A stretch of 64,000 bases of DNA, taken from IMG/VR virus record IMGVR_UViG_3300033571_011534, positions 1 to 64,000 of that record, one strand, 5' to 3'. A model generated the notes under the pieces. It was not told the DNA's origin and did not search any database. It worked only from the letters and a program-made list of their open reading frames with translations. Both the position numbers and the translations under genes were made by a program. Positions 1,086 through 51,610 of this stretch are shown here, one piece after another; within the stretch, counting starts at the first letter, position 1, and each line of letters starts with the position of its first letter. This stretch comes from a virus.

Positions 1086-1110
1086 ATTGTCACCTCCTAA
1101 GTGATTTTTC

Positions 1111-2460: not shown

Positions 2461-2525
2461 ATTAGTTAATTATACTGTCTGTTTTTTCAGTTATTACAAT
2501 ATTATAACATATATAAAACAATACG

Positions 2526-4510: not shown

Positions 4511-7500
4511 CTATAGAGGTTTTATGACAGAAGAATTCCATTCTACGTCTTTATATATCGAATACTGGTATCCTCGGAACACACTGCTGTTTAAATTATC
4601 ATCAATTATGAACTTATTCGTTCCAGTATATCTTTTATAGACGTCAGATGGGTCAAAACCAAACAATTTCGTTTCATTTGCAACTAAAACGCCATTCCAG
4701 GTAAAGGAGCCTTGCCAGAAGTTCCAGCCCAAAATGGTAGAAGACCCCTCTACGCCAACCTGGTTTACTCTAAACCATGGACGATATGACTGCCTTTGAA
4801 CTTCTTGTAGGCTTGTAGACTGATAGTGGGAAACGTTATTTACGATAGCATCAGACACTATTCGAATGGCCCCAGGGTAACTATCAAAATTAAGGATTCT
4901 GGCAAAGTTAATACCTATAACTGACCAATCCTGTGCATCGATAACGGCTTCTCTAACCTTCTTTCCATTTACGTAGAATAGTAGGCCATTTTCAACTGCC
5001 CCAGTTTTAGCATTAATGGCATAAAGGCGGCCACGCTTTCCACTACTGTCGTTTGCTACCGAAAAGAACTTTATAAAGTCCTCTTTACCCTGTATTTCAA
5101 AAACTAGCTTTGGAATTTGAGAGAAAGATTCCTCTGGGAACCTTAAAAACATTTGCATTGCAAAGACCCTATACGACTCTGCCAGGTTTTGATTTATTTG
5201 AAAAATTAGCCCTCTATCTACAAGCCTAGCGTCTGATCCAACTTTCTGGATTCCACTATCTTTTGTTAGGTATAGGTGTGGCGTCGTGCCCTTATAAATC
5301 CTAAATGGGTTTTTGGATACGTAGTCAAAGTAGCTTCCATACTTCTTATATGGAATAATCTTGGTTCCGAATTTTGTTCCTACGAAGTTTGGAGAGGTCT
5401 CATTAATGGCCTGAGACGAATACTCTATCCTTCTGATATTTACTGGATTGGACGACATTCCTTCTACATCAATTTCTAGATGTGTAACAATTGCAATATC
5501 CGAAATCGAGACAGAAGATGGAGGATAGATGATTGTTCCATTCTCTACAACGTACTTTGTATTAATCCACTCCAAGGTATTTCCAGGATCAATCACCCCT
5601 TTTATTGGTGATTTTGTTTGTGTAAATGCATCTAGGTTAGCATTCGCTCCGCTCTTCAGAAACTGGAAAGTAATATATTGTCTAATAGAGTATTGCTTAT
5701 TTACGTTAACCGAATCGCCAACCCCTGGAATTGACGGCACAGAAGAATTGTATTGAATAAAGTCTAGGTCATAGTATTTACCACCGAAGCTGTCGTCAAC
5801 AAATTGAGCAAAGTAGCTTAGTGGCAAATAGTCTTGCCAGCTTGATGCAGAAGATATATCTAAAGAATATTCTCCAAATCTATAGACTGGCTGAATCGTG
5901 TAACTTGCTATATGGTCGTAGATCTCCTGAGTTCCTGAGCCATCGTCTTCAAACGAATCTGATCTACCACCATCGATTATTTTACTCCAAAAGGCTGGAT
6001 CGTTTCCAAAGTAGGAGTCTCCAACGTTCCAGATTTCTGGAACCTCTGGTTCTATTGGCAAGGCAAACAGGCTTGTAAGCTTCTTAAAGTTATTGCTTGT
6101 ACAGAACCCAAGTTTATAGACTTTACCCTGGAATGTTTTAGAAAAGTCCGAATCTCCTGCAATATAGATTCTTAACTGAGCCCTGTTTCCAAAAAATGCA
6201 GACACGTTCTTTCCAAACGCCTTTATAAGTCCGTCTATATTTATACCAGCAAAGATGCTTGTGGCATCAATAATTGAGTCCGAGTACAGGGTTTCAAGCT
6301 GCCCATTATAAAATAAAGAGTAGTTAATTCTATCCCCAATTACGGATGCAGAAAAGTAATTGTTGTTACTTATATTCTCTATTTTAAATAAAATCTGTTC
6401 TGATGCTGAGTATGACTCAATACCGAATATTCCATAAATCGCTTTGGTCTTTTGTCTCATAAAGTTGATCTTGTCGATAAACATAAAGGACTCTTTGTCC
6501 TTAAATGTAAAAAACAACCTGTCCTCATCTTGTAGCTCTGATTGTTCCGAATACCAGCTACTCAGGTTTGTTGGCTCGTCTAAAAACCGTATTTCTGGAA
6601 TCTCATAACCAGGAAGCTGAATGGAGTTTCTAGATACATCCAGGTTCTCAACAATTCCTTGTGCAAATTTTCCAAATTCTGGATAGGTGTAGGTATTGGT
6701 GTAGTCCGCAACCGAATAGTCAATAGCGACTGTTGTTCCTCCAAATGAAGTATTTGCGTTTTCTGGTATCTCTACCGCTTGACCATATGCCCATCTTCTT
6801 TTGGCGATAATGTCTGAAACCCAGTATGGGTATATTGAAACGCAGTCAATTTCTACTAGCCTCACGTCTTCGTAAGCATAAAAGCCAATCCAGTCTTGCA
6901 ACTTGCCATTTTGATCTAGCTCTTGCGGCAGATCGATATCGGATATATCAATTTGAATAGATAAAACCTCTTCACCGTTTATAAGAAGAGATGCTATGTC
7001 TGGCTTTATTCTTAGGTTTAAAAGCATTGGCCTAAACAGTTCTCCAGCATAATAAGATGCTGAACTTTGACCAATTTTTACCTTAATAAATGGGCCATCT
7101 ATATAGATTCCGTCTTCAGAAAAAACTGGACCAATAATTCTTTTTGATGATGTTGTTTGAGAGTCAATACGAACCCATGCCTCTAGGGTTGCTTCACGAT
7201 ACCTTCCCCAATCATTAAGAAACCCAAAACCTGGAAGAATTAATGATGGCTTTCCAGAATTTCTAGGATAAATTCTTGTAACGTTTTCCGACCCGAAAGT
7301 CAGAGGAACACCGTGATTCTTAGCGACAAGATTACTGTCTTCAATAAAGTAGTAGCCAGAAGAGTCCTGCAAGCCATAGGAGTTTGCCTCAACAACTTTT
7401 GTACTAGACGACCCTCCAATGCTGGAAGGAAGACTTGAGGGAACTGACCCTGGAACTATTCCCAAAGAGGTTGCTTGAAACTCTTCTGACCTTTGCCCCA

Positions 7501-8092
7501 TTGTTATACCGTTTACATAAAACTCATAGTCAGAATTTTGTGACCCAGCGTTAATATACTCAATCTCCAGAACTATCTTCATGTCTAATTCTTGGTGCTC
7601 TTGTGGGATATCAAATGTTTCTGATATAAAGACCCATTCTTTAGAAATTGTGCTAGAGAATTTTTTTAAGACTTCCCTTGGGGAAGACTCTCCAGGAACA
7701 GAATATTGATAGCCAATTTTGTATGAGCTAACGTATGGGCTTTTAGCATAAATGTAAGTTCCTAGCGAAAAAGTTTCCATTTGCTCATTTAGCTGGTTAA
7801 ACTTTATGATATTTTGGCTTTCAAGATGCATAGTCATTGGAGACATTGGAAGCATAGAGCTATATGTGCCAGTTATTTTCGATGTAAAGCTATCTGGAAA
7901 TGGAGTTCCAGAAATAGTATCATTGTTAATATCGGAAACTGGGCCTGTATATACCCAGATATTTGGATTATCAATATTTCTTTGGTTTTCTGAAATAAAT
8001 GATACATAGTCTACTCGATCATCCAGCGACCAAAGCGCTATTGGATGTTCTGCAAATACCTTTTCTGCGTACAAGTTAGAAGGAGTAGACAT
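4511..8092 (-). CDS. Large virion structural/minor tail protein (beta-rich, ConA/LamG-like segment)
   Basis: 1193 aa; N-term YAEKVFAEHPIALWSLDD and TLEAWVRI motif typical of LamG-like tail proteins. Confidence 0.6.
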   Translation of the reverse strand: MSTPSNLYAEKVFAEHPIALWSLDDRVDYVSFISENQRNIDNPNIWVYTGPVSDINNDTISGTPFPDSFTSKITGTYSSMLPMSPMTMHLESQNIIKFNQLNEQMETFSLGTYIYAKSPYVSSYKIGYQYSVPGESSPREVLKKFSSTISKEWVFISETFDIPQEHQELDMKIVLEIEYINAGSQNSDYEFYVNGITMGQRSEEFQATSLGIVPGSVPSSLPSSIGGSSSTKVVEANSYGLQDSSGYYFIEDSNLVAKNHGVPLTFGSENVTRIYPRNSGKPSLILPGFGFLNDWGRYREATLEAWVRIDSQTTSSKRIIGPVFSEDGIYIDGPFIKVKIGQSSASYYAGELFRPMLLNLRIKPDIASLLINGEEVLSIQIDISDIDLPQELDQNGKLQDWIGFYAYEDVRLVEIDCVSIYPYWVSDIIAKRRWAYGQAVEIPENANTSFGGTTVAIDYSVADYTNTYTYPEFGKFAQGIVENLDVSRNSIQLPGYEIPEIRFLDEPTNLSSWYSEQSELQDEDRLFFTFKDKESFMFIDKINFMRQKTKAIYGIFGIESYSASEQILFKIENISNNNYFSASVIGDRINYSLFYNGQLETLYSDSIIDATSIFAGINIDGLIKAFGKNVSAFFGNRAQLRIYIAGDSDFSKTFQGKVYKLGFCTSNNFKKLTSLFALPIEPEVPEIWNVGDSYFGNDPAFWSKIIDGGRSDSFEDDGSGTQEIYDHIASYTIQPVYRFGEYSLDISSASSWQDYLPLSYFAQFVDDSFGGKYYDLDFIQYNSSVPSIPGVGDSVNVNKQYSIRQYITFQFLKSGANANLDAFTQTKSPIKGVIDPGNTLEWINTKYVVENGTIIYPPSSVSISDIAIVTHLEIDVEGMSSNPVNIRRIEYSSQAINETSPNFVGTKFGTKIIPYKKYGSYFDYVSKNPFRIYKGTTPHLYLTKDSGIQKVGSDARLVDRGLIFQINQNLAESYRVFAMQMFLRFPEESFSQIPKLVFEIQGKEDFIKFFSVANDSSGKRGRLYAINAKTGAVENGLLFYVNGKKVREAVIDAQDWSVIGINFARILNFDSYPGAIRIVSDAIVNNVSHYQSTSLQEVQRQSYRPWFRVNQVGVEGSSTILGWNFWQGSFTWNGVLVANETKLFGFDPSDVYKRYTGTNKFIIDDNLNSSVFRGYQYSIYKDVEWNSSVIKPL

Positions 8093-8118: not shown

Positions 8119-8991
8119 TTAGGATACCAGCCCTGTCCATCTACCCTGGTCGTCATACCTATATAGATGGGTAACATCTATCCATTGCTGTGTGGAAGAG
8201 TCATATCTTTTAATAAGCGTTACTGGGATAAATGCCCCTGAACTATCCCTTCTTTTTGCTCCAGGTAAGATATTTATAAAAAAGTCTCTCCTAGATGCTG
8301 GTGCAGTTGGGCCGACAGCCTCTACAGTTACGGACAATCCTTGTTTCGTTTCGTTAGGTGTTCCAGAAATTAATCCAGAGGGTGAGAGAGAAAGTCCGTT
8401 TGGAAGCTGGCCACCTACCACTGAATAAGACGTGGCATCGAGAGCTTCAAGCTGTATTGACACTGGAACATTGTTTCTTACACTTCCTAGCTCAGTGCCA
8501 GTTACCCAGCTTGGAGCTGGGATAAATGTTGGGAAAAACGGAAAAAACGGTGGAAAGAATGGTGGAAAGAATGGAGGAAAAAATGGTGGAAAGAATGGTG
8601 GGAAAAATGGCGGAAAGAATGGTGGCGCTGCAGCGGTTGTAAAATTAAATGATACGCTTGCATTTCCAACTACACCAGCACCAGTAAAGCTACCACTAAC
8701 ACTGTAAGTGGTAGATGGGCTGAGTCCTGTAACTGTTCCAGATACCGATCTTGGGAAAAATGGGTTAGATACGTTTCCAGATCCAAAGTCATAACTTCTA
8801 TTTGAGGCGTTTGCTACTTGAGTGCCTGCAACGGTAACTGTCCACCCCGCACCAGATGAGCCGAAACCAGAAAAGTTAGGATTATTATCTGTAACGGAAG
8901 CTGACCAGTTAACTGAAGTAGCTGTTATACCGCTAACGTCTACGGTTAATCTAGCTCTTCGTTCGGCATCGCTAGTATTAGAAAATGGCAC
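8119..8991 (-). CDS. Virion surface protein: FN3/Ig-like domain + (PPFF)n tract + Ig-like (He_PIG-like) domain
   Basis: VTGLSPSTTYSV FN3 signature; PPFF x7 then PFFP; GQLPNGLSLSPSGLISGTP Ig repeat. Confidence 0.65.
   Translation of the reverse strand: MPFSNTSDAERRARLTVDVSGITATSVNWSASVTDNNPNFSGFGSSGAGWTVTVAGTQVANASNRSYDFGSGNVSNPFFPRSVSGTVTGLSPSTTYSVSGSFTGAGVVGNASVSFNFTTAAAPPFFPPFFPPFFPPFFPPFFPPFFPPFFPFFPTFIPAPSWVTGTELGSVRNNVPVSIQLEALDATSYSVVGGQLPNGLSLSPSGLISGTPNETKQGLSVTVEAVGPTAPASRRDFFINILPGAKRRDSSGAFIPVTLIKRYDSSTQQWIDVTHLYRYDDQGRWTGLVS
8530..8625 (-). repeat. (Pro-Pro-Phe-Phe)n coding tandem repeat, 12-nt unit with synonymous variation
   Basis: Directly visible GG(T/A/C)GG(A/G)AA(G/A)AA(T/C)-type units. 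Confidence 0.95.
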
Positions 8992-8999
8992 CTATGCAC

Positions 9000-9998
9000 C
9001 TACCAGATCCAGAGGTCACCGTTTGATGCATTTGACGGAGTCTCAGTTGACGGTTGCACAAAAATTCTCATTCCAGGCTCCCATTTAGCATCACCAGAAT
9101 CGTACATAAGAATTTGTCTATTTTGTGGCGAGGAGATATTTACATCAGAAAGACTTACTAAAGATCTTGGCGTAGTTCCCGCCTGCCAGGTTTGAGTTGA
9201 CGTGTTATAGATAAGGGAGTCTCCGTTTGCAACGGTTGTAATATTAACATCAGACAAATCATTAAGATTGGAAGCTGGTTTTCCTGGAACCCACTTCTGA
9301 GTTACAGAATCATAAACAATACTGTCGCCATTTTGAACAGAAATAAGGTTGACGTCTTGCATTTCTGACAAGTTATCAACACCTGGACCTGGAGGGCCTG
9401 CTGGACCTTGTGGCCCCTCATCACCAATTACGTTAAGATTTACTTTATACCAAAAAGTGGAAGAGTCATCTGGTTCGTGTCCAAGATTTGGGTCTACGGC
9501 AGAAAACCAAGAGAACCCATCATGGTAAACGGCATCATTAGCGGCATAGTCAACTGACTGACTCCAAACACCCCTCCATGTGATGTTAGTTGGTCCAGCT
9601 GCACCAGATTCACCTCTTGGCCCCTGAGCTCCCTGAAGACCAGTATTTCCTTGCTGACCTTTCGGAATTGAAAATGTTAGTGTTCTATTTGGATGTGTTC
9701 CACCTAAAATCACCTGAGCTGGTTGATCATGCTCAACTGTTTGAACAGCAGCAATCGATAAGTTAACGGCAAGAGAATTTAGCCACTGCTGCTCTGTGCC
9801 AACGAAACCATTTTCTACAGCAATGTCATAGGCGGTAGCCTGTGCATATGAAAGGTCTGACCACGTGTCAATTCCATTTCCAAGCTTAAACTTACCACTG
9901 TCTTGCTCTACACCAATTTCTCCTGGTGCTAGGATTGGGTTGCCGTCTTCCCATTCTTCGGAAAATCCTCGGCGTAGCTGAACTCTAACAAATGACAT
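9000..9998 (-). CDS. Tail fibre/collagen-like protein with Mtd_N-type N-terminal domain
   Basis: VQLRRG..EW...NPILAPGEIGVE.D.GKFKLGNG; G-X-Y triplets; LSDVNI repeats. Confidence 0.75.
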   Translation of the reverse strand: MSFVRVQLRRGFSEEWEDGNPILAPGEIGVEQDSGKFKLGNGIDTWSDLSYAQATAYDIAVENGFVGTEQQWLNSLAVNLSIAAVQTVEHDQPAQVILGGTHPNRTLTFSIPKGQQGNTGLQGAQGPRGESGAAGPTNITWRGVWSQSVDYAANDAVYHDGFSWFSAVDPNLGHEPDDSSTFWYKVNLNVIGDEGPQGPAGPPGPGVDNLSEMQDVNLISVQNGDSIVYDSVTQKWVPGKPASNLNDLSDVNITTVANGDSLIYNTSTQTWQAGTTPRSLVSLSDVNISSPQNRQILMYDSGDAKWEPGMRIFVQPSTETPSNASNGDLWIW

Positions 9999-10041
9999 AA
10001 AATACTCTCCTTAGACTATTTTAGCACATAGATGTTAAAAA

Positions 10042-10746
10042 TTAGTCTTTAACTAGGAATGCCGTGGCAATGTACTTTTCTTCTTTAATGACCTTGGTTG
10101 CCTCGTGAGAAAAGGGTTCTCCAGATGGGAAGACTACGACGCTTCCTGCAGATGGCTTAATGGTTACCCCCTGGTTGGGGAAGTGCAACTCTCCGCCATC
10201 ATAATTATCGTTTAAATAAAGAACTGCCGACAAGTAGGATTCCCCCTTGTAGGTGTCTACGTGCTGACCCTGCTCCGAGCCCACGTAATATTTACAAATC
10301 ATTATTGGAGACATCTTTGCTGGCCCCAACTCCAGGGTATTTGTATAGTGGTCAGTAGTAAAGGTTAATGCGTTCTTTATTTGCCCAAAAGCAAACTGGC
10401 CTTCTGAAGAGCTTGTAAGGTACTTTTTAGCATTTGTTGTTTTCACCTCTCCAAGAACATAGGCTGTCTGTGACTCAATTTCTCCTGATGGCAACAAGAC
10501 TTCACTGGTATGCTCCCAGGGATTCCACTGCTGAATAGCATCAGAATCTGTAGTATTAGGATCAGAGTTTTCTAGGGCAAGAATTACCTGGTCTGGGTGG
10601 TAGATAATATTTTCGTAATAGAAAATCTTTTCTGCATAGACCTTTGGCTCAAAATTTGTAGTTTTAATCCATAATGGCGAGAAAAATGGTGGATAAATTG
10701 ACACCTGGTCAACCAGGTACTTGTCAAGAGCTTTTTGATAGTCCAT
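10042..10746 (-). CDS. 2OG-Fe(II) oxygenase (prolyl 4-hydroxylase-like)
   Basis: HVD...YLNDNYDGGELHF...FPS...H...KY. Confidence 0.9.
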   Translation of the reverse strand: MDYQKALDKYLVDQVSIYPPFFSPLWIKTTNFEPKVYAEKIFYYENIIYHPDQVILALENSDPNTTDSDAIQQWNPWEHTSEVLLPSGEIESQTAYVLGEVKTTNAKKYLTSSSEGQFAFGQIKNALTFTTDHYTNTLELGPAKMSPIMICKYYVGSEQGQHVDTYKGESYLSAVLYLNDNYDGGELHFPNQGVTIKPSAGSVVVFPSGEPFSHEATKVIKEEKYIATAFLVKD

Positions 10747-10805
10747 ATATCCTCCAATAGAACAATTATTATTATACCAGATCTGCCATTACTGGTGAAT
10801 TAGGC

Positions 10806-11387
10806 TTACAGGGTATCCCAGTGGAAGAACTCTCTGTAGTCCTCAAGTCCAATCACGGTTGGGTCTACCCACCAGTCTTCGTGAATGGATCTGTGAACCA
10901 GAGAATACCCAAATGAGTCCAGGATTTCTCTTTGAGCGTCTCTTATTGTACTATTGCGCCAATACATATTGGCATCATGCTCAAAAGTAATTAACGTAAA
11001 CCTATATGTATTTAATGGCACGGCAACAAGACCCTGTAGCGTCCAGTGACTATTTCCAACTGGCCTTCCAGCAAAGTCATATCCAGCGTCAATATCTAGC
11101 TGCAGATAATCAATTTGCTTTGGAAAGTTATTTTTTTCAAAGTAATCGATATAGTTAAAAGATAGGGCGTCACCCATGCATGGGTTCTTTCTATTTGAGT
11201 TAAACTCATCCCTCATAGAATCTACAATTTCAAAAGACACACCTTTCCAGTCATATTCCTTTTCCAGCAAATAGGTGTTGTTTCCTTTGTCATAGTGAGC
11301 TGCCCCTAGCTCAACATAGTGGCCATTTCTCTTCTTTTTTAAAATCTCTATAATAAAGTGCTCTTGTTGCGTTATTTGATGTGTCAT
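10806..11387 (-). CDS. FkbM-like SAM methyltransferase-fold protein
   Basis: YVELGA...NNTYLLEKEYDWKG; IDYLQLDID; ITFEHD. Confidence 0.7.
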   Translation of the reverse strand: MTHQITQQEHFIIEILKKKRNGHYVELGAAHYDKGNNTYLLEKEYDWKGVSFEIVDSMRDEFNSNRKNPCMGDALSFNYIDYFEKNNFPKQIDYLQLDIDAGYDFAGRPVGNSHWTLQGLVAVPLNTYRFTLITFEHDANMYWRNSTIRDAQREILDSFGYSLVHRSIHEDWWVDPTVIGLEDYREFFHWDTL

Positions 11388-11962
11388 TTAAACAAATCTC
11401 CTCTTAATTTTGTTGGTTCCTCATATGTTCCTCGTACGAAGACAGTTGAAAAGTATCTTATTTTATCATTTAAAACTGGTTTTGAGCCATGCAAAATGTG
11501 TCCGCCATGTATGTACAAAGAGTTTGCCTTTGGCTTGACGGTTATTCCAAGCTCTGGGTATTCCAACTCCCCTCCCTCATAGTCATCGTTATAATATAGA
11601 CAAAATCCATATCCAATATAATATGGCAAATCTGGGTTCCACTGATCGGTATGTGGTTTTATGAAGTCACCCATCTTATATCTTTGCAAAAGAAGATTTG
11701 ATGGGTAGTAGTGATAAGACTCAAAAAGCGATTCCATTTTTTTATTAATATCTGAAAATACTGTCTTTGTTTTGAATTCTAAATTTTTACCATACCAAAA
11801 ATCTGCAAAATCTTCGCCTTTTGCCGTGTCTTCAGAAAACCAATCTTTTTCGCTAAGGCTATTTATAATATTAAAAACTTCGCCAAACTCCTCTTCAGAA
11901 AGAAAATTATTAATTTCATAGACACCCTCGTGCAACTTTACAATTTCCATATCATCACACAT
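11384..11962 (-). CDS. 2OG-Fe(II) oxygenase
   Basis: HTD...YNDDYEGGEL...HG...RY. Confidence 0.9.
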   Translation of the reverse strand: MCDDMEIVKLHEGVYEINNFLSEEEFGEVFNIINSLSEKDWFSEDTAKGEDFADFWYGKNLEFKTKTVFSDINKKMESLFESYHYYPSNLLLQRYKMGDFIKPHTDQWNPDLPYYIGYGFCLYYNDDYEGGELEYPELGITVKPKANSLYIHGGHILHGSKPVLNDKIRYFSTVFVRGTYEEPTKLRGDLFK

Positions 11963-12623
11963 ACTTACTATTAAAGATATTGCTAATTTCTAGATGGTTT
12001 ACATTAAAGTGTTTTGGCAAAGAGGAAATCCATCTAATGGCCTCTGCCACATCCTCTGCGGTCAAAGCGTTGTCTTTTTTCTCAATTTGGGTATCTATTG
12101 TTCCTGGGCAGATTTCTGTAACCTTAATGCCGTACTGGGGAAATTCCATTCTCATTGTGTCAACAAGAGCCATCATCCCCCTTTTCGCATTAGTGTAATT
12201 TCCGCCACCCCGAAAAGGAACCTTTCCAGAAAGAGATGATACAAAAACAATTGACGGAGACTCTGACCTTTGTAAACACGGCACGAATAGCTGAGAAAGA
12301 TACATTGGTCCAGAAACGTTTATGTCATATGCCATTCTAAAATTATCCATTGTTTCATTAATAATGCTGGTTGGGCTTGCTCCTCCGCCTGCATTATTTA
12401 CCAGCAAATCTAGAGAAATATCCTTGTACTTGTCAAAGAAGCCTTTTATCTGATCTTTTTGTGTAATGTCTAGTCGATAAAGTTCTAGGTTATCAGAACT
12501 TATTTTAGATAATTCGGACAGGTTTCTTGATACAGCTATTACCCTATACCCAGAATTTAGCAAAAGCTTTACAGTGGCATAGCCGACGCCCTTGCTAGAC
12601 CCAGTCACGATTGCCGTTTTCAT
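11955..12623 (-). CDS. Short-chain dehydrogenase/reductase (SDR)
   Basis: TGSSKGVG, NNAG, SS..., YTNAK catalytic motifs. Confidence 0.92.
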   Translation of the reverse strand: MKTAIVTGSSKGVGYATVKLLLNSGYRVIAVSRNLSELSKISSDNLELYRLDITQKDQIKGFFDKYKDISLDLLVNNAGGGASPTSIINETMDNFRMAYDINVSGPMYLSQLFVPCLQRSESPSIVFVSSLSGKVPFRGGGNYTNAKRGMMALVDTMRMEFPQYGIKVTEICPGTIDTQIEKKDNALTAEDVAEAIRWISSLPKHFNVNHLEISNIFNSKYV

Positions 12624-13474
12624 TATCCCAAAGATTCTATTTCTTTTTCATAATAAGACTCAAAGTCTTGCCAAAACGGGACGCCATTAATTATGTCAAT
12701 GTTGTCGCTATTTCTATTATATCTAAGCCTTTCGTCTTCCATCTGCTTCCAGATGTCCTCTCCATACTTTTCTTGCAACCTTTTCCAAAGTGGGTGGCCA
12801 GGGTAGTCGTATCTCCAGTATGTTCTAATAATATACTTTTCTCCCTCAGAGACTATTTTGACTCCATGATAATGTGGGTGGCCAGAATTAAAAATAACTA
12901 AATCTCCAGCCTGGGGCTTATAGTTATATTCTTCTTTAATTACAGAAACATCGTCATTGTCTAAGAATCTAAATAAAACATCTCCACCAGAATAATTATC
13001 GTTTAGATAGAAAACTGCGGTTACGGCAAATTTATGTCCAGGATTATAGGCAAATTCTCTTTGATAGTCTGTGTGGAAGGCCATTGCATAGTCGCCACCA
13101 TTGATTTCATTTTGCCTTGGTTCATATTTTGCAATATTCCATCCACTAAATATCCAGTTATCGATAGATACATTATTTGCCTCGACGTACTCTTTTGTTG
13201 CATTGTAAAATACGTCATTTATTTCACTTTCAAATGGACCGCATGCCCCAAAGTCGTGGTCATAGATATTTTTTGCTTCTTCCCACTGTTCTGGTGTTGG
13301 AAAACTATCAAACCTAGTTGTAAAATGTGTACCCTCTGCATGCTTTCCAAAAATATACCAGTCTTTCCATTCCACCTTTTTGTCAAGATAGTCCAACGTA
13401 GCTTCTGGACTCTTTAATGCGTTTTTAAAGACCCAGACTGTGTTGTGGATTTTCTGAATATCAAAATTAGACAC
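12623..13474 (-). CDS. 2OG-Fe(II) oxygenase
   Basis: HTD...YLNDNYSGG...HG...KY. Confidence 0.9.
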   Translation of the reverse strand: MSNFDIQKIHNTVWVFKNALKSPEATLDYLDKKVEWKDWYIFGKHAEGTHFTTRFDSFPTPEQWEEAKNIYDHDFGACGPFESEINDVFYNATKEYVEANNVSIDNWIFSGWNIAKYEPRQNEINGGDYAMAFHTDYQREFAYNPGHKFAVTAVFYLNDNYSGGDVLFRFLDNDDVSVIKEEYNYKPQAGDLVIFNSGHPHYHGVKIVSEGEKYIIRTYWRYDYPGHPLWKRLQEKYGEDIWKQMEDERLRYNRNSDNIDIINGVPFWQDFESYYEKEIESLG

Positions 13475-14168
13475 TGCAGCCTCCGTGTAGGTTCATATCA
13501 TTATGAATCCAGTGGCTTGGGACCATATACTTTACCCCAGACTTTACTGTGTGGGCAATGTGATAGTACGGAGCGGATGATGGGAATATGATAATACTTC
13601 CAGCACTTGGCTTAACGCCAAAATCGATTTCGTTATTCTCAACAGCAACAGAGTAATCCAAATCTGGGCTAACAACCTTGCTGTGGTCCTCGTAATCAGA
13701 AAGCTTAAAGGATATTTCTCCGCCATCACAGTCATCATTCAAATACATTACCAAAGAGTACCTGAGGGTTTTGTCTCCATCTAGCTGGTCATAGTGTGCC
13801 CCCATTGCAGCGCCAGTATTGTATTTTTTAATATTAAAGACTGGGAATAGCCTTGGCTCATCGCTATCGCCAACTGCTGCGGCATAGTCTTTACAAACGT
13901 TGTACAGCGACTTCATGATGTTGATGTAAATAAATTCAGACTTACTTCTGTATGGCTCTTCCATATGCTTAATCTGATTAAGATCAAACGACTGAGTCTC
14001 TCCATATATAAAAGTCTTGTCGTTTGAAGCTGTCCAGTCTTGCCATAGCGGCTTTCCAGCGGATGCTCCGATTTCGTCTAGTTCCCTAATGGCGTCCATA
14101 ACCTCTTTAAAGTTTTCGACGGCATCCTCGTAGTAGTAAACCTTTTCGTGTAATACCTGCTTTTTCAT
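13467..14168 (-). CDS. 2OG-Fe(II) oxygenase
   Basis: HYD...YLNDDCDGGE...FPS..YH...KY; start placed at MKKQ just after upstream stop. Confidence 0.88.
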   Translation of the reverse strand: MKKQVLHEKVYYYEDAVENFKEVMDAIRELDEIGASAGKPLWQDWTASNDKTFIYGETQSFDLNQIKHMEEPYRSKSEFIYINIMKSLYNVCKDYAAAVGDSDEPRLFPVFNIKKYNTGAAMGAHYDQLDGDKTLRYSLVMYLNDDCDGGEISFKLSDYEDHSKVVSPDLDYSVAVENNEIDFGVKPSAGSIIIFPSSAPYYHIAHTVKSGVKYMVPSHWIHNDMNLHGGCSV

Positions 14169-14169
14169 A

Positions 14170-14829
14170 TTAGTACCTATTCCTTTGATAATGTCCAACT
14201 TCTTTTATAAAGCCCACAAGGACATATCTGATTGGGCCTTCTGAAACAAATTCTACTCCATGCTCATACTTTTCATTGCCTGGAAAAATCAACAAGCACT
14301 TTGGCTTTGGCCTTAGCTTTAAGCCTAAATTTTTAAAAAGTAACTCTCCATCTTTATAGTCATCATTGATATATGTAATAGCTGCATACCTAATAGATGG
14401 GTCTGTGTGCTGATCAGTATGAGACTTTAGCTCAACCCCTGGTTGCATTCTTTGAATTGTTGCAAGCCCACTGAGCTCTAGAGAGCTATCTGCCTCTCTG
14501 ACCATGGAAGCAAGCCTTTCATAAAAAACCCTATATTCTGGATATTTACTTATATTAAGATTTTTGTCTGTCCAGTTTTGAGTGATCTCGAACTTGCCCT
14601 CAGCCACAAGGTTATCTACGTCATCTCTTCCAAACTTTTCTATGCAAAAATTTTTTAAATTTGACATGTACTCAATTTCCCAGTCAGGTTGAGATGCCTC
14701 GTTAATTCTGTCTTGCAGAAAGCTTAAGTCTTCGTCTGTTAGGAAATTGTCAATAGATAGTAGCTCATCAGTTAGCTCTTCAAACGCAATGCCCCTATCT
14801 TTTAAAACTTCCTTTAACGACTCAATCAT
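14170..14829 (-). CDS. 2OG-Fe(II) oxygenase
   Basis: HTD...YINDDYKDGEL...HGV...RY; paralog of 51611-52279. Confidence 0.9.
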   Translation of the reverse strand: MIESLKEVLKDRGIAFEELTDELLSIDNFLTDEDLSFLQDRINEASQPDWEIEYMSNLKNFCIEKFGRDDVDNLVAEGKFEITQNWTDKNLNISKYPEYRVFYERLASMVREADSSLELSGLATIQRMQPGVELKSHTDQHTDPSIRYAAITYINDDYKDGELLFKNLGLKLRPKPKCLLIFPGNEKYEHGVEFVSEGPIRYVLVGFIKEVGHYQRNRY

Positions 14830-14830
14830 C

Positions 14831-15577
14831 TTACAGGTCTTCTACCTTATACTTGTTTCCATTTATGTCTATCTTGTAGCCTTCTTTTAGCAGATCTTGC
14901 CACTCTTTTCTTTCTAGCTCTTGACCGTCTCTAATCTTCTTCATTTCTTCCGCCCAGGCGTCTCTCAGCTCTTGAGGGTATGCGTCTTCTTCACGATCAT
15001 CCCAAAAAGATCCGATTGTGTATCTAACGCCTGACTCAATTAGGGTAACCTCGTGCATATTATTAAATCCGCCATCAAATGCCGCAAGCATTCCAACCTT
15101 TGGCTTAATCTCTATATCTTGTGATGGGAACTTTAGAAGACCTCCCCCAAAGTCATCATTTAAGTAAAGAAACGCAGCATATCGGCTTCTAGTAAATGGT
15201 CCAGAGTTGCCATGCTCATCTGTATTGTCGGAGTGGACTCTTGCATATGCTCCTGGCTCCCACTTTTGTGTATGGTATCCGATCTGAACGACTGTTTTTG
15301 GATCTAGGTCGTGTACGGATGCAACTGCCTCAATAATGCCCTGCTTAATTTTTGAAAAAATGTCAGAGTCAAGACCCTCATCTAGGATCTCTTGATCGCC
15401 ATCCTGCGGTAAAACAGAGGAATAGGACTCGTAAAAAGATATTGGCATCCACGTAATTTTTCCAGTTTCTGCAACCTTATCTAGGACTTTTATGATTTTT
15501 TGAGATTCTTCTGGGGTTAAAAAGTTCTCATAAAGGACTATATCCTTAGTAATCCTGTTTTTGTTATTTAAATTCAT
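14831..15577 (-). CDS. 2OG-Fe(II) oxygenase
   Basis: HSD...YLNDDFGGG...HEV...RY. Confidence 0.9.
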   Translation of the reverse strand: MNLNNKNRITKDIVLYENFLTPEESQKIIKVLDKVAETGKITWMPISFYESYSSVLPQDGDQEILDEGLDSDIFSKIKQGIIEAVASVHDLDPKTVVQIGYHTQKWEPGAYARVHSDNTDEHGNSGPFTRSRYAAFLYLNDDFGGGLLKFPSQDIEIKPKVGMLAAFDGGFNNMHEVTLIESGVRYTIGSFWDDREEDAYPQELRDAWAEEMKKIRDGQELERKEWQDLLKEGYKIDINGNKYKVEDL

Positions 15578-15629
15578 TGCAAGGCACTCCTTTTAAATAT
15601 ATTATAGCAGATAGTAAAAGTGGCCAGCA

Positions 15630-16355
15630 TTAAGCAAAGTTCCAGAGCGACCACTTAGATCTCCAGGAACTGTCCCATTCTTCATACCAGGACTTAGACC
15701 AATCTTCCATTTTTTGACTTCTCCAGGCTTCTCTTTCTTCAGAATACTTGGAATCAGAAAAGTCCCAGAATGAAATTATTGTATATCTGAGTCCAGACGT
15801 GATTTCCCTTACTCCGTGGATGTTTTCCTTTCCTCCAGGAAAAAGAACTAGCGACCCAGCCTTTGGCCTAACGTCCATTTCGTGCTCAGGAAAAAACACC
15901 TCTCCACCAGAATACTGATCATTTAGATAAATAATCGCTGCGTACTTATTTATTTCAAAATGGTTAGAGTCTCCATTTTCATCTGTATTGTCGGAGTGGA
16001 CATGACCAAGACCTCCAGTTTGAAATTTTTGGGCATGAATAGTGTTAAGGGAAACGTCCTTAGAGAAAAAGAAAGATACGTGATTATTTATTTTTTCAAC
16101 AATGTCATATACAGTAGATTTAGAAAGATTAAACAATTCAAGATCTACGTCTGGCTCTGGGAAGTGTCCTAGTCGATATTTATAAGAAGCAACATGCCCC
16201 CAATTTTCTGGTTTGCTTTCTATATACTTAATTATGTTTTTGCAAGCCTCATCGTCTAAAAAATCCAGAACTTCTATTATTTTATTTTGACTGATTCCAG
16301 GAGTTCCATTATTATTCAAAGAGTCTAAATGGACAACAATTTTGGGGTCCATCAT
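15630..16355 (-). CDS. 2OG-Fe(II) oxygenase
   Basis: HSD...YLNDQYSGGE...HGV...RY; close paralog of 14831-15577 (VHSDNTDE). Confidence 0.9.
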   Translation of the reverse strand: MMDPKIVVHLDSLNNNGTPGISQNKIIEVLDFLDDEACKNIIKYIESKPENWGHVASYKYRLGHFPEPDVDLELFNLSKSTVYDIVEKINNHVSFFFSKDVSLNTIHAQKFQTGGLGHVHSDNTDENGDSNHFEINKYAAIIYLNDQYSGGEVFFPEHEMDVRPKAGSLVLFPGGKENIHGVREITSGLRYTIISFWDFSDSKYSEEREAWRSQKMEDWSKSWYEEWDSSWRSKWSLWNFA

Positions 16356-16360
16356 TTTTA

Positions 16361-17035
16361 TTACTCAGAAGTTTTTTCTTTATGAGACAGGATTGTCCAA
16401 AAGAACGGTACTGTATACCTGATACCAGAGATAATTTCTGAAACTCCATGAATGTAGTTCATGTCTCCAGGGAAGAAGTAAGCAGCGCCCCTCTTAGGCT
16501 TAAATTGAATGTTCTGGTTTGGAAAGTACAACTCGCCACCTTCATAATCATCGTTAATGTAGAAAAGGCCAGCAATGTCGTAATATGGGAAATCATTTGG
16601 CTTACCAGCGTCTGGTCCTGTGTGAAGCTCTTTGTCTGCGTGTGGCATCTGTAGCTGCCCTGGAAGCCATCTAACCATTGCTGGGCTAGTTGGGAGGGCG
16701 TCTACGCCAAAGAACTTATCTACCTCTATCTTCAATCTTGCAACCATTCCCTCAATAATTTCTGGAATTTCTTGATTTGTTTTATAGATAGTTGGATAGG
16801 TCGCTACACGATTAGCCCAGTATCCAGCATCATAAATAACGGTTCCGTTTTCGTTGTGATGAGTTTCTGTTTGGTCCCAGTTTTCATTACTTCTAATAAA
16901 GTCATTTAGAGCAGTCAGCTCTTCTTCGGTCATAAAATTTTCTAGGGCAACAATGTTTTCTGGAGATGAACCAAAAAATCCAGATGGCGTAATTGAAACC
17001 CGATCAACAATGTGATTGTTAGTTAAGTCGTCCAT
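16361..17035 (-). CDS. 2OG-Fe(II) oxygenase
   Basis: HAD...YINDDYEGGEL...HGV...RY. Confidence 0.9.
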   Translation of the reverse strand: MDDLTNNHIVDRVSITPSGFFGSSPENIVALENFMTEEELTALNDFIRSNENWDQTETHHNENGTVIYDAGYWANRVATYPTIYKTNQEIPEIIEGMVARLKIEVDKFFGVDALPTSPAMVRWLPGQLQMPHADKELHTGPDAGKPNDFPYYDIAGLFYINDDYEGGELYFPNQNIQFKPKRGAAYFFPGDMNYIHGVSEIISGIRYTVPFFWTILSHKEKTSE

Positions 17036-17049
17036 TATAACTCTCCTTC

Positions 17050-17775
17050 TTAGTCATACTTTCGTCTTTCCCAAACCTCTTTTAAGTATACACCACCGTT
17101 GGGCACCCGATATTTCTTCGAGTTTTCCATGTTCTTTTTCATAATAGAAAGGCCAGAATCAAGCTCGTACTCAGACTCCCAGTCCTCTCGTTTAAATGGT
17201 ATCATTTGAGAATATGGTGTTCCAGCTGGAATAACCCCAGTCCAGCCTTCTTGTATAAAAAATGGAAAAGTTCCTGGAAGGTGTACCTTATCATTGTCGA
17301 TGATACCGCTTGTTGTATGAAATGGCAAGTCATATCTTCCAAAAGGCTGGGCATACAAGACGCTGTACCCCTTTGGAGTAGCTACGGCCCAGTCTGGGTA
17401 CCAGGCAAAATGCTTTTTATAGTATCCTCGTGGATGCTCAAACTGCGGCATAGGATCTCGAAACTGAATAAAATCAGAGTATTTAGGGTCTAATACTTTA
17501 GCTGAAATTTCATTTTTGCTATCAAGAAAAAACTCGATATCGCAAGGAGTTCTATATACGTAACCAGTAATAAAAATATCATATATGGCTGGGCAGGCTT
17601 TCCAGGTTGGAATCTTACCACCATCCATTCCAATGATGCTTTCTCCATTTTGTCCCTTGTAGAATCTGTCAGCAGAGGTATACCATTCTGGCAAACTTTT
17701 TGATACTGGCTCTGGAGCTGATGAGTCTTTTTCGGACAACCACCCTCTATTAGCTAAAAATTTAATTTTTGGCAT
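17050..17775 (-). CDS. Hypothetical protein, DUF6065-related/beta-clip-like, associated with oxygenase cluster
   Basis: TWKACPAIYD...GIIDND...IPAGTPYSQMIPFKRE. Confidence 0.55.
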   Translation of the reverse strand: MPKIKFLANRGWLSEKDSSAPEPVSKSLPEWYTSADRFYKGQNGESIIGMDGGKIPTWKACPAIYDIFITGYVYRTPCDIEFFLDSKNEISAKVLDPKYSDFIQFRDPMPQFEHPRGYYKKHFAWYPDWAVATPKGYSVLYAQPFGRYDLPFHTTSGIIDNDKVHLPGTFPFFIQEGWTGVIPAGTPYSQMIPFKREDWESEYELDSGLSIMKKNMENSKKYRVPNGGVYLKEVWERRKYD

Positions 17776-18481
17776 AATTGGTGACCTTCATGATAATCTT
17801 TTTGGATTCGTGATGGCCGATAGGGACTCCGTTGTGGTCTACAGCATCTCGATAAAAATGAGTCCATTCCCCTTTAGAGTTCTTTTCCTGACTTGCAACT
17901 CCACGATCTCTCATTCTTTCCTGCCATTGAAGGTCCTCGTATTCTGGCCTTCCATTACGAACCTCTAGTTCGTGTTCCTGAATATCAGAAAGGGATATTG
18001 GCAAGACAGAAGCTATTGGAGTGTTTGCTGGTATTGTTATTTCAATATTTGGCTCTGTAATCATCCAAGCAATCGGAAGGTCACCAGCCAAAACAGAAGT
18101 ACTTATTAGGGTTGTCATACACTGAGCTCCTCTAATAAACTGATTCGGCACAGGCATTGTCAAAAGACTTAGATTTTCATTGTTTTCTTTTACAAATGTA
18201 ATGTCTGTGTAAAAGCTAACAGTTCTGTTTCCACGATTTGGATGAGCATAATTTGAACCAGAAAGAATTTTTACGTGCTCTCCTCTTGAATCATTTATTC
18301 CATCCCAAATAAACGTAATATCTTCTGGGTACGAAATGCCCCACCCAAGTCTATTTGACAAAGAAACAGGAAAGCACTGATAGGCATGTCTATCAAAAGT
18401 AATATCCATCCAGTCACGGTGTAGCGGTAGCTGATCTATATTAGCGTGATGACCAGAAGTGTAGGCTGTTACCTTGGGCAT
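17762..18481 (-). CDS. DUF6065-like protein
   Basis: RDWMD...HAYQCFPVSLSNRLGWGI motif. Confidence 0.6.
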   Translation of the reverse strand: MPKVTAYTSGHHANIDQLPLHRDWMDITFDRHAYQCFPVSLSNRLGWGISYPEDITFIWDGINDSRGEHVKILSGSNYAHPNRGNRTVSFYTDITFVKENNENLSLLTMPVPNQFIRGAQCMTTLISTSVLAGDLPIAWMITEPNIEITIPANTPIASVLPISLSDIQEHELEVRNGRPEYEDLQWQERMRDRGVASQEKNSKGEWTHFYRDAVDHNGVPIGHHESKKIIMKVTNYAKN

Positions 18482-19185
18482 CAGGAACCTGTCTCTTGGT
18501 AGAACTTTGGATTGTGATATTTATCTGAGTAATCCAGCATTGTCACAATAGAATGCTTTATTCCAGACTCTACTGGCAACGATTTGTGAGGATACATGTA
18601 GTTAGATGGGAAGATGAAAAGATCTCCTGCCCTTGGCTTTACCTTTAGCCCCTGTAGTCTAAATTCTAGCTCTCCACCAGTATAGTCATCATTTGGATAG
18701 GCAACAAGCGAAACAACACAGTTATAGGAGTAACCGTTGTCAGAATGCTCTTGGAAGTGTTGTCCTGGACCATATTTTACAAAGTTCATTGCTTCCCAGT
18801 AGCGGAGCTCTCCGACGTTGAATCGTCTTGAGTAATCTTTTACTGCTGCGATTTCTCTATCATAAACATCTTGCCACAACTGCTGAAGCTTTTGAGATGC
18901 TGGAGATTGGTCATGCATAATATCTGTTTTCTTGTACTTAAAATCCCAGCAGTCACGGTATTCTGGCATCTTGGTACCGTAGCCCACCATAGCTTCCATG
19001 TAGTTGTAGTAGTTTGTATTATCGTCCAAAACCTCTTCGAGTCTATTTATGATATCCATATCTGTAGGAAGGACATCGTGGTATACGAATATGCCAGGAG
19101 ATAGCTCCTCTACAGAAGACCAAGTCTGCTCTTCGATCTGATAGTATTCCTGAATTCTTCTGCTTAAATCTTCAACTTTTTCCAT
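18481..19185 (-). CDS. 2OG-Fe(II) oxygenase (P4H-like)
   Basis: HSD...YPNDDYTGGEL...FPSNYMYPH...K. Confidence 0.9.
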   Translation of the reverse strand: MEKVEDLSRRIQEYYQIEEQTWSSVEELSPGIFVYHDVLPTDMDIINRLEEVLDDNTNYYNYMEAMVGYGTKMPEYRDCWDFKYKKTDIMHDQSPASQKLQQLWQDVYDREIAAVKDYSRRFNVGELRYWEAMNFVKYGPGQHFQEHSDNGYSYNCVVSLVAYPNDDYTGGELEFRLQGLKVKPRAGDLFIFPSNYMYPHKSLPVESGIKHSIVTMLDYSDKYHNPKFYQETGS

Positions 19186-19195
19186 TTTTCACCAA

Positions 19196-19951
19196 TCAGT
19201 ATGTTATCTTTGTCGAGTCCTCTTGCCTATATGGGAAATATCTTAGATTTCCACGATCATTGTAGTCTGTCATAACAACCACAGAGTACTTTGTACCGCT
19301 TTTCATTGGCAATGAGGCGTGTTCATATATATATGTAGATGGGAAAACAGCAATATCTCCAGGCTTTGGCTTAATAGTTAAATCAAACCTTGGGAAGTAA
19401 AGCTCTCCACCCTCATAATCATCGTTTAGGTATGCAACAACAGAGACTGTAGTCACATATGCGGGACCATGGTCTGCATGAATATTAAAATGCTTCCCCT
19501 CTCCCTCATACTTTACAAAATTAAATGCTTCGTAGTATGATATTCCTACTCCCCAATAGTGTCCATAATCCTGGACATTTGGGTGAATAGCCTGAAATGC
19601 CTTTTCGTGCATATCATATAGTTCTGAGTTTTCTGGATTTCTTGGGCCGTAGGAAGTACTATTAATTTTAAAGTCTACACAATCTCTTGCATCTGATAAA
19701 ACAGCATCAGACTCTGTTACCATGGCTCCGTGCCACTTATAGACATCACTTGTGCTATTCGTAAGCTTTGACTCTAGGGTATTTATAATGCTCTTACAGT
19801 CGTTAAAAGAAATAGCATTATTGTAAATATTAATTCCAAGTGCTGGATTTGATACTAAAATACCGCCACCTGTTGTTCTGTCTGGCATTCTGTTGCTATA
19901 AGTTTCGGATCTATCTTTAGTTAGCCAAGGATTTTCATATTGTTGTTCCAT
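19196..19951 (-). CDS. 2OG-Fe(II) oxygenase (P4H-like)
   Basis: HAD...YLNDDYEGGEL...FPSTYIYEH...KY; leaderless start 6 nt after TGATATAAT. Confidence 0.9.
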   Translation of the reverse strand: MEQQYENPWLTKDRSETYSNRMPDRTTGGGILVSNPALGINIYNNAISFNDCKSIINTLESKLTNSTSDVYKWHGAMVTESDAVLSDARDCVDFKINSTSYGPRNPENSELYDMHEKAFQAIHPNVQDYGHYWGVGISYYEAFNFVKYEGEGKHFNIHADHGPAYVTTVSVVAYLNDDYEGGELYFPRFDLTIKPKPGDIAVFPSTYIYEHASLPMKSGTKYSVVVMTDYNDRGNLRYFPYRQEDSTKITY

Positions 19952-19974
19952 GCAGCAATTATATCACAGTGGCC

Positions 19975-20020
19975 AAAACAGAAAAACTGCAAGTTATTTC
20001 TAACCTGCAGCTTTCTGTTT
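19975..20020 (-). terminator. Intrinsic terminator after PPFF-FN3 gene
   Basis: Minus strand CTGCAGGTTA-GAAA-TAACTTGCAG followed by TTTTTCTGTTTT. Confidence 0.75.
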
Positions 20021-20030
20021 ATACGCTAAC

Positions 20031-20843
20031 CTAGCAGCGGGGTGGACATCCACCAAACCTTGGGAAGAATGGACCGAATCTAGGGAAGAATGGCGGGAAG
20101 AATGGTGGGAAGAATGGGAAGAACGGTGGGAAGAACGGCGGGAAGAACGGTGGGAAGAATGGTGGGAAGAATGGGAACCATGGTGGGAAAAATGGTGGGA
20201 AGAACGGGAACCATGGTGGGAAGAATGGGGGGAAGAACGGTGGAGTAGTAGTAATGTCTCCAGAATATGGAGACCACTCTCCTAGGCCATTTGCATTTTG
20301 AGCACGTACACGATATGCCTGAGTAGTAGAACCCTCTTGAGCAACGGTAACAGAAGTGCTTGTAGTGGACCCACTCTTGCTATCTGTACTTTCCCAAGAA
20401 TAAGAAGTAATAGTACTTCCTCCGTTATTTGGGATATTCCAGCTTACAATATCCTCATTAACTTGTGGGCTAGCTGAAGGAGCATTAGGCGCTGCTGGAA
20501 CTGTGGTTGCTGTAACACTTACAGATGAAGATGGCTGAGAAGTTCCAGCATTATTAGATGCAGTTACTGTAACAGAGTAGCTAACATTAGAGGCAAGACC
20601 CTCTACGGAAATTGGAGAAGAAGATCCTGTGCCAGTTCTAGTGGTCTGGCCAGATGCTGTAGCAGTTACAGTATAAGAGTTGGCAGCTGGAGAATCATCT
20701 GGCAAAGAGAACGACACAGTTGCTGCGCCGTTATTAAAAGCTCTTGATGTCCCTACGTTTTGTGCTGATACATTGATCGGAGCCTTAGGCTCTAAAAAGT
20801 CATTCTGCTGTGACGACCTTCCGCCAACTTCTTTCTTTGCCAT
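20031..20843 (-). CDS. Two fibronectin-III domains + C-terminal ~65-aa (PPFF)n tract ending GGCPPRC
   Basis: GLASNVSYSVTVTASN and YRVRAQNANG FN3 signatures; SD AGAAGGAG. Confidence 0.8.
   Translation of the reverse strand: MAKKEVGGRSSQQNDFLEPKAPINVSAQNVGTSRAFNNGAATVSFSLPDDSPAANSYTVTATASGQTTRTGTGSSSPISVEGLASNVSYSVTVTASNNAGTSQPSSSVSVTATTVPAAPNAPSASPQVNEDIVSWNIPNNGGSTITSYSWESTDSKSGSTTSTSVTVAQEGSTTQAYRVRAQNANGLGEWSPYSGDITTTPPFFPPFFPPWFPFFPPFFPPWFPFFPPFFPPFFPPFFPPFFPFFPPFFPPFFPRFGPFFPRFGGCPPRC
20052..20243 (-). repeat. (PPFF/PPWF/PRFG)n coding repeat
   Basis: Directly visible; third codon positions vary. Confidence 0.95.
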
Positions 20844-51584: not shown

Positions 51585-51610
51585 TTGCCCCAGTCGTGTA
51601 TAATATAACC

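Follow-up and report, generated by a model that had tools for sequence, protein, structure and literature searches.

Tandem proline/phenylalanine tracts as candidate substrates of an oxygenase array in an actinophage-like virus

Two tract genes and the array between them

The window analyzed here is the whole 64,000-nucleotide stretch of DNA at the start of a virus record of 75.7 kb in IMG/VR (IMGVR_UViG_3300033571_011534, CheckV completeness estimate 67%). It harbors two genes, P0001 and P0002, whose products carry tandem proline/phenylalanine tracts, and between them an array of Fe(II)/2-oxoglutarate (2OG) oxygenase genes that is entirely encoded on the minus strand (Table 1). The array is composed of ten PF13640 oxygenases, two homologous DUF6065 proteins, a short-chain dehydrogenase/reductase (SDR), and orf193, with the SDR and orf193 interleaved among the eight oxygenases that follow ox2 (10042-17035). 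An initial annotation of this DNA had placed PPFF-type proteins at both ends of such a block and had proposed their tracts as substrates of the enzymes. The bracketing arrangement is confirmed by the sequences of both proteins and by Tandem Repeats Finder, which detects the two tracts with a period of 12 and with 77% (P0001) and 83% (P0002) matches.

P0001 ends in about 65 amino acids (aa) of PPFF, PPWF, PFF, and PRFG units plus GGCPPRC. Residues 201-256 comprise nine PPFF, three PFF, two PPWF, and one PRF unit and are followed by GPFFPRFGGCPPRC. The scaffold that carries this tail had been described as FN3-FN3; one fn3 domain is matched by a hidden Markov model (HMM), and the second is seen by eye only. 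In P0002, the tract is located between the two domains (residues 123-156, seven PPFF units plus PFF and PTF), the second of which is matched by the Pfam model He_PIG (5.6e-10). The whole 75.7 kb record holds just these two tracts, and a reversed control pattern gives zero matches. The tracts differ in their Phe codons (TTC 26 and TTT 1 in P0001, TTT 11 and TTC 6 in P0002), which argues that they are not recent copies of each other and that the repeat is maintained at the protein level. The third-position variation on which the initial annotation had based the latter point is modest but real.

The tract proteins reside among fiber genes. P0004, the fiber protein directly upstream of P0001, contains a C-terminal module whose residues 681-797 match the PHROG tail fiber/minor tail families phrog_8780 and phrog_21978. 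A terminator had been predicted between P0001 and the cluster, and a terminator-like hairpin is found there. The promoters ascribed to the cluster itself are not supported, as the 39 promoter-like sites compare with 36.5 expected, which is chance level. At the far end, the predicted collagen-like fiber is present as an Mtd_N protein with brief G-X-Y runs. A collagen-like fiber as the main substrate of the array was considered and rejected owing to its short runs and few prolines.

Neither a nonribosomal peptide synthetase nor an ATP-grasp enzyme occurs in the array, so the only candidate scaffold for its chemistry is a ribosomal one. Family scans of the window genes reveal no protease or exporter within or beside the array, and neither a tryptophan halogenase nor a JmjC/MINA-like member is found among its genes. 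The suggestion of a released core, as in ribosomally synthesized and post-translationally modified peptides (RiPPs), finds no support, given the missing protease and exporter and the tracts that are also internal linkers. An analogy to antamanide and cyclolinopeptide and a resemblance to PR-39 and Bac5 were dropped, since they offered nothing testable.

Table 1. Features of the window discussed in the text, listed in the reading direction of the array and followed by features outside it
Feature	Position	Strand	Description
P0004	20940-23336	-	798 aa fiber protein; Mtd_N N terminus (1.7e-11), conserved C-terminal module; directly upstream of P0001
P0001	20031-20843	-	270 aa; FN3(-FN3) scaffold, C-terminal Pro/Phe tract aa 201-263, GGCPPRC end; candidate substrate 1
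Terminator-like hairpin and T run	19982-20015	-	15 pairs; after the P0001 stop codon, before the first oxygenase
ox1	19196-19951	-	PF13640 3.4e-12; orthologs adjoin the tract gene in FN3-type and PASTA-type modules
ox2	18481-19185	-	PF13640 3e-13
DUF6065a	17762-18481	-	PF19541 1e-23, 84.5 bits; invariant H32, C36
DUF6065b	17050-17775	-	Most conserved array gene; no Pfam match; dUTPase-like barrel (model), invariant Cys
Oxygenase	16361-17035	-	PF13640
Oxygenase	15630-16355	-	PF13640
Oxygenase	14831-15577	-	PF13640
Oxygenase	14170-14829	-	PF13640
Oxygenase	13467-14198	-	PF13640
Oxygenase	12623-13474	-	PF13640
SDR	11955-12623	-	adh_short 2.3e-40, 138.6 bits
Oxygenase	11384-11962	-	PF13640
orf193	10806-11387	-	Possible FkbM-like methyltransferase (lead only); no HMM match
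Oxygenase	10042-10746	-	PF13640
Mtd_N fiber	9000-9998	-	Pfam Mtd_N; two short collagen-like G-X-Y runs
P0002	8119-8991	-	FN3-like domain, PPFF x7 linker, He_PIG Ig domain; candidate substrate 2
1193 aa protein	4511-8092	-	Between P0002 and the portal region
Capsid, protease, and portal genes	within 3-4121	-	
PASTA-domain protein	29022-29897	-	PASTA 2e-07
Collagen-like protein	32612-33319	-	G-P-K / G-D-x triplets
Oxygenase outside the array	34481-35119	+	PF13640
Oxygenase outside the array	51596-52279	+	PF13640
Collagen-like protein	57327-58418	-	Includes (GAD)n runs

Fold, divergence, and accessory proteins of the array

All ten array oxygenases score 28.8-53 bits against PF13640 (curated cut-off of 27), and the residues H158, D160, and H211 are invariant across 37 aligned sequences that include all ten paralogs. 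The intact HxD...H motifs reported earlier are thereby confirmed. The consensus after the second histidine reads HAS....SGxKY; its lysine at H+10, which is not invariant across the sequences, aligns with the lysine of the Bacillus prolyl 4-hydroxylase (P4H). The structure of ox1, the sole oxygenase that was modeled, is predicted to take on a double-stranded β-helix fold like that of solved prolyl hydroxylases (predicted local distance difference test score, pLDDT, 85.8). A Foldseek search of the PDB lists 48 matches to this model (to rank 49), all of which are protein prolyl hydroxylases. They include PHD2, vCPH from Paramecium bursaria chlorella virus 1 (PBCV-1), Chlamydomonas P4H, Bacillus anthracis P4H, and Pseudomonas PPHD (E 2e-10 to 2e-8, template modeling score 0.5-0.69). 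The viral enzyme vCPH (5c5t) stands high among the structural matches to the ox1 model (rank 11, E 1e-9) and is also matched by profile (2.4e-6). When the family profile is compared to PDB sequences, Bacillus P4H (1.9e-15) and human P3H1 (6.4e-15) lead, followed by PKHD/PiuC, PHD2, and the lysyl hydroxylase LH3. Both the ox1 fold and the family profile thus agree with the P4H-type assignment of the initial annotation. A complex prediction of ox1 with the P0001 tail (aa 196-270), run without controls, gave a score of 0.00 and speaks neither for nor against an interaction.

The ten paralogs are mutually 23-45% identical. Nine of them share 58-95% identity with their closest orthologs in other phages, which follow the same gene order; for ox10 the value is only 33%. 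The paralogs are therefore old and separately conserved, which argues for distinct roles. By sequence and by predicted fold, the array oxygenases are an ordered set of anciently diverged, catalytically intact Fe(II)/2OG dioxygenases of the P4H/P3H type.

A side observation concerns RefSeq cyanophage genes annotated as "ferrochelatase" (NC_048049.1 of S-T4, NC_070962.1 of S-SCSM1, and NC_023587.1), which are matched by ox1 with 24.7-30% identity over 74-86% of its length (E 9e-13 to 4e-11). Judging from these alignments, the annotation may hide 2OG-oxygenase-like proteins, which would bear on the reported co-occurrence of oxygenases and ferrochelatases in marine viromes.

Two DUF6065-like genes had been recognized in the cluster. 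DUF6065a is matched by Pfam; DUF6065b has no Pfam match but is homologous to DUF6065a by hhalign (96.9%), its membership otherwise coming from Atlas neighbors only. Each of the two proteins keeps an invariant Cys. In a VIA-align comparison with the model of DUF6065b (pLDDT 91), dUTPase/dCTP-deaminase chains take ranks 1-22 except for two viral proteins (Z 8.6-5.0). A Foldseek search of the PDB with the same model returns weak rows only (E 4e-3 or worse), and DUF6065 profiles match no solved protein among the PDB sequences, dUTPases included.

The SDR of the initial annotation is clearly matched by adh_short (Table 1). The FkbM-like protein finds no HMM support, as orf193 has no Pfam or NCBIfam match even at E 0.1, PF05050 (FkbM) included. 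It is left as a lead by an Atlas neighbor cluster with PF05050 in 24% of its members and by the motifs ELGAAH and LQLDIDAG, which resemble FkbM. Other arrays add TauD-type dioxygenases and glutathione-peroxidase-like genes, and a sister array contains a GT8 glycosyltransferase. Accessory enzymes that use hydroxyl groups thus recur, with the SDR and a possible FkbM-like methyltransferase here and GT8 in a sister array.

Coupling of tracts and arrays across viruses

A degenerate DNA pattern for (PPFF)3 alone finds at least 120 viral loci, in which oxygenases were called with a profile built solely from the ten oxygenases of the window. Within 1.0 Mb, 85 of the 120 listed loci hold 309 oxygenase open reading frames, and DUF6065a/b, the SDR, and orf193 recur in these loci too. 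Of the 81 tract genes with an enzyme in the locus, 79 have the nearest one past their 3′ end, at a median gap of 281 bp; 62 of these enzymes run in the same direction as the tract gene and 17 are convergent. Among the enzyme-free loci, 33 records were searchable. PF13640 genes are present elsewhere in 21 of them (up to 13 per record), and the remaining 12 are fragments with a completeness of 31% or less.

The reverse search started from DUF6065b alone and found at least 595 viral stretches, of which 80 were kept and 47 offered at least 4 kb of upstream DNA. A Pro/Phe-tract protein is encoded upstream of the array in 46 of these 47. A simple regular expression recovers it, co-oriented and no more than 6 kb upstream, in 40. 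The other seven arrays comprise one with a tract protein at 6.3 kb, five with variant tracts (PFFPxFC, PPGFG, PPGFF[AS]) just before the first oxygenase, and one without a tract.

The portal encoded in the window shares 47% identity with the portals of Streptomyces phage Yaboi and related phages (Stanwilliamsviridae, genomes of about 131 kb). This similarity, together with a GC content of ~40%, identifies the virus as an actinophage-like siphovirus whose host is probably low-GC and aquatic. Sister phages were taken as the 24 records with portals 75-80% identical to that of the window. Array and tract are both present in four of them, both absent in 20, and never found one without the other (4/0/0/20, Fisher p = 9e-5). 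The four sister arrays hold 7-10 oxygenases each and have a tract protein directly upstream throughout; a second tract protein lies beyond the array in G034, G039, and G040, with a PPHF variant in G034 and G040. Two of the 20 sisters that lack both are complete genomes. In both, a similar Mtd_N fiber is followed by a homolog of the FN3-FN3 scaffold (50-53% identity) that has a Pro-poor (S/G)PFG(A/V)FGF repeat as its tail; the gene after it encodes an unrelated protein of 217-224 aa. The scaffold thus stays the same while the type of tail and the set of enzymes encoded downstream vary in step. Co-occurrence across phages, which had been put forward as a check on the initial annotation, is strong in both search directions and in the sister comparison.

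The 217-224 aa gene (L310 2259-2933, plus strand; L311 63-716, minus strand) is conserved, has no Pfam match, and encodes many conserved His and Trp residues (WHxHG, HPHAMGDWDW). Its product may be a tailoring enzyme for the PFGxFGF tail type. The complete array-less sisters also hold just two scattered oxygenases, so that the two PF13640 genes outside the array of the window look like a lineage core distinct from the accessory array. One of these, at 34481, lies 1.2 kb from a collagen-like protein with the triplet run GPKGDQGPKGDPGPKGDTGPKGD; the second collagen-like protein outside the array region contains GPAGPTGPEGPAGADGAPGADG. Both are possible substrates of the scattered oxygenases.

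Beyond the sisters, the tract-bearing records fall into at least three groups by portal identity (70-94%, about 50%, and about 22% or no match). The scaffolds vary in type: two FN3 domains, a weak PASTA-like domain whose tract has Lys as its last residue, Ig domains, or long fiber-like proteins with the tract as a linker. In other lineages, the upstream gene is of a tail-fiber type with the C-terminal module of P0004. A scan of 596 Gb of cellular genomes gives 22 matches, of which 16 are spurious short repeats and six are real PASTA-type tract proteins. The latter lie on small contigs of metagenome-assembled genomes with inconsistent taxonomy, and five of the six adjoin oxygenases; these contigs probably stem from phage DNA that was binned along, and the 596 Gb yield no cellular version of the system.

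A shared neighborhood could arise without shared enzymology. The array might act on a small molecule or secondary metabolite, on host proteins (EF-Tu, ribosomal proteins), on nucleotides or DNA, or on 2OG levels, the tract genes merely being the last of a fiber operon. Iyer, Abhiman, de Souza, and Aravind described in silico an array in Syn9 (gp41-gp54) of ten tandem dioxygenases, two tryptophan halogenases, and a dUTPase-fold Cys protein in 2010, for which they proposed secondary-metabolite synthesis and named no substrate (PMC2938197). Sullivan et al. proposed DNA repair or 2OG/nitrogen signaling for cyanophage oxygenases in the same year (PMC3037559), and a role as seasonal metabolic genes is another proposal for phage oxygenases (PMC11561400). 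Syn9 and three other cyanomyoviruses have oxygenases and no PPxFPPxF tract, which is absent from Yaboi as well. The dUTPase-like fold of DUF6065 and the hairpin that parts the tract gene from the array fit such a role too. It accounts poorly, however, for the joint gain and loss of tract and array among close sisters, in which the scaffold stays with another tail, and for a link that persists whatever the portal group, the scaffold, or the gene orientation. Arrays repeatedly have a second tract protein at their far end, an enzyme that would make a scaffold is missing, and the oxygenase fold is P4H-like and not AlkB/TET-like. An array without a connection to the tracts is rather unlikely on balance.

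Internal-linker tracts occur in fiber-like proteins of 500-1500 aa that are located away from arrays. They would be expected if tracts stayed unmodified as hydrophobic polyproline-type spacers, or as cohesive FG-repeat-like tails that stick to the host envelope, while the oxygenases served the collagen-like fibers of the phage. The window does encode three collagen-like proteins (Table 1), but their collagen-like runs are short with almost no Pro at the Y position, and array-less sisters still have fibers. The 46 of 47 and 4/0/0/20 associations would be left unexplained, which makes unmodified tracts the least probable of the explanations considered.

Across 168 distinct tract proteins, the units are PPFF (51%), PFF (23%), and PPYF (10.5%), with a median tract of 51.5 aa. 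At position 3 of the unit, F, Y, W, H, and small residues are the only ones that occur. Such a pattern would suit an array that acts on the aromatic residues instead of, or besides, the prolines. β-Hydroxylation of Phe, Tyr, Trp, or His or oxidative cross-links (ether, C-C) would give a cross-linked or catechol-like adhesive polymer, nearer to cyclophane RiPPs or mussel foot proteins than to collagen. Phe, and not Pro, is common to all tails. This extends to the Pro-poor PFGxFGF tails in array-less sisters, where one or two oxygenase-type genes are still found downstream. Ten diverged paralogs also exceed the need of proline hydroxylation. The TauD-type dioxygenases of sister arrays belong to a family that includes amino-acid β-hydroxylases. 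ox5 aligns, though weakly and far below the cut-off, to NF041706, the cyclophane-peptide oxygenase YhhC, over the full length of that model (E 5.7e-5), and the Syn9 array contains tryptophan halogenases (PMC2938197). The fold and profile matches of ox1, by contrast, are all prolyl or lysyl hydroxylases, and large arrays are seen only with Pro-rich tails. Chemistry directed at the aromatic residues is considered unlikely.

Several tract proteins show further features at their ends. A Hint/intein-like block (C-[ILV]-x-x-[DEG]-[TS]...) follows the tract in 16 of them (loci L035, L069, L238, L240, L241, L257, L259, L290, and L311), several with a Lys before the Cys; Pfam Hint/intein matches are weak and below cut-offs. 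Another 28 tract proteins end simply in ...PPxFK, so that self-cleavage of the former would yield the same Lys C terminus in both classes.

The remaining observations concern the wider record. The structural region includes a PASTA-domain protein (Table 1), and PASTA-like domains carry the tract in another module type, which is a hint of cell-wall binding. The 1193 aa protein next to P0002 has no Pfam, PHROG, or phage-database match. A terminase was not recognized in the 64 kb window. A megablast search of the region and a tblastn search of P0001 against 50,697 phage records gave no match, within the limits set by the low-complexity filter and a possible exclusion of the own record; P0003 likewise had no match among the phage records.

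Proposed tailoring pathway and known systems

The PPFF repeat is the likeliest candidate substrate of these phage oxygenase arrays, and a phage-borne post-translational tailoring system for fiber-region proteins is the best explanation of the module. A rough probability of 0.6 is given to the tracts being substrates of the array, with proline hydroxylation as the first step. The substrates would be tandem P(P)xF tracts of about 50 aa (PPFF, PFF, PPYF, PPWF, PPHF), which form C-terminal tails of FN3, PASTA-like, or Ig scaffolds, or linkers between their domains, in proteins encoded beside tail-fiber genes. The hairpin after the tract gene might let the substrate be made in excess over the enzymes. 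The oxygenases would then hydroxylate tract prolines, and the paralogs may differ in the sequence context or the ring position that they prefer. The new hydroxyls could be processed further by the SDR (to a ketone) and by the possible FkbM-like methyltransferase, or by the GT8 glycosyltransferase in sister arrays. The Cys-bearing DUF6065 pair with its dUTPase-like fold may assist, for example, by holding the hydrophobic tract or by an extra chemical step. At the virion surface, this would leave a polyproline-type rod that is hydroxylated, more soluble, and rigid.

Several points weigh against tailoring of the tracts. Most of the phages come from freshwater actinophage-like lineages that are related to each other, and synteny by descent therefore accounts for part of the association. 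A terminator-like hairpin stands between tract gene and array, and in 17 of 81 cases the first enzyme is convergent rather than co-oriented with the tract gene. Arrays of this kind can exist without a tract, as the Syn9 array has a homologous DUF6065 protein and no PPxF tract. Ten enzymes are more than simple proline hydroxylation of a four-residue repeat needs, and the fold of DUF6065 would also suit a nucleotide substrate.

A bolder and doubtful extension of the tailoring model sees a new virion biomaterial in the Pro/Phe polymer. Up to ten regio- and context-specific oxygenases would act on Pro and aromatic residues, followed by oxidation, methylation, or glycosylation, and in some phages a Hint domain would activate the Lys C terminus so that it could be attached covalently. 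With DUF6065, a new family for peptide handling or catalysis would emerge, and the abundant orphan phage arrays, that of Syn9 included, would serve virion-surface protein tailoring and not metabolism.

Few unexplained "auxiliary" genes of aquatic viromes are as common as those for phage 2OG-Fe(II) oxygenases, and the module provides a concrete, gene-encoded candidate substrate right beside such enzymes. If the assignment is true, a multi-enzyme system that hydroxylates structural proteins of bacteriophages would be on record for the first time; it would give DUF6065 a function and would supply enzymes that act on an unusual hydrophobic polyproline-type repeat. A literature search on DUF6065, phage PPFF repeats, and actinophage oxygenases found nothing relevant.

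A parallel is found in collagen, extensin, and mussel foot proteins, in which enzymes of the PF13640 type (C-P4H/P3H in animals, P4H in plants and algae) hydroxylate the prolines of a repetitive structural protein. In plant systems, the hydroxylated prolines are then glycosylated, which the GT8 gene of a sister array brings to mind. As candidate substrates, the tracts differ by their period-4 repeat with two aromatics and without Gly-X-Y or Ser-Pro4, and by their phage origin and many paralogs. In RiPP clusters, a precursor gene precedes the tailoring enzymes, often with an attenuating hairpin in between. The module resembles them in the position of the candidate substrate gene immediately before the putative tailoring enzymes, in the hairpin behind that gene, and in the repetition of core motifs. 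It departs from them in lacking leader/core logic, a protease, and an exporter, and its tract stays part of a folded scaffold of virion type, in some cases as an internal linker.

A viral P4H-type enzyme with virus-encoded, Pro-rich tandem repeats as substrates is also the theme of PBCV-1, although the repeats are candidates only in the present case. Eriksson et al. reportedly studied the Pro-rich repeat open reading frames of that virus in 1999, with peptides such as (PAPK)n and the PBCV-1 prolyl 4-hydroxylase. PBCV-1 has one enzyme compared to 5-11 paralogs here, a eukaryotic host, and charged repeats instead of Pro/Phe. It has no DUF6065, SDR, or methyltransferase, and its enzyme and substrate genes are not adjacent.

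The most similar array is that of Syn9. Both comprise distantly related tandem 2OG dioxygenases and a dUTPase-fold Cys protein, and gp43 is homologous to DUF6065b (hhalign 95.9%, E 5e-9). The PF19541 HMM finds no match in the four cyanomyoviruses, although gp43 of Syn9 is a relative by profile comparison. The Syn9 array likewise comes after tail-fiber genes. It differs by its two tryptophan halogenases and a JmjC/MINA-like enzyme, and no PPxFPPxF tract is present anywhere in the Syn9 genome, whereas the array described here is paired with a ribosomal Pro/Phe tract protein on an actinophage-like backbone. The array type itself has been known in silico since 2010, without a substrate.

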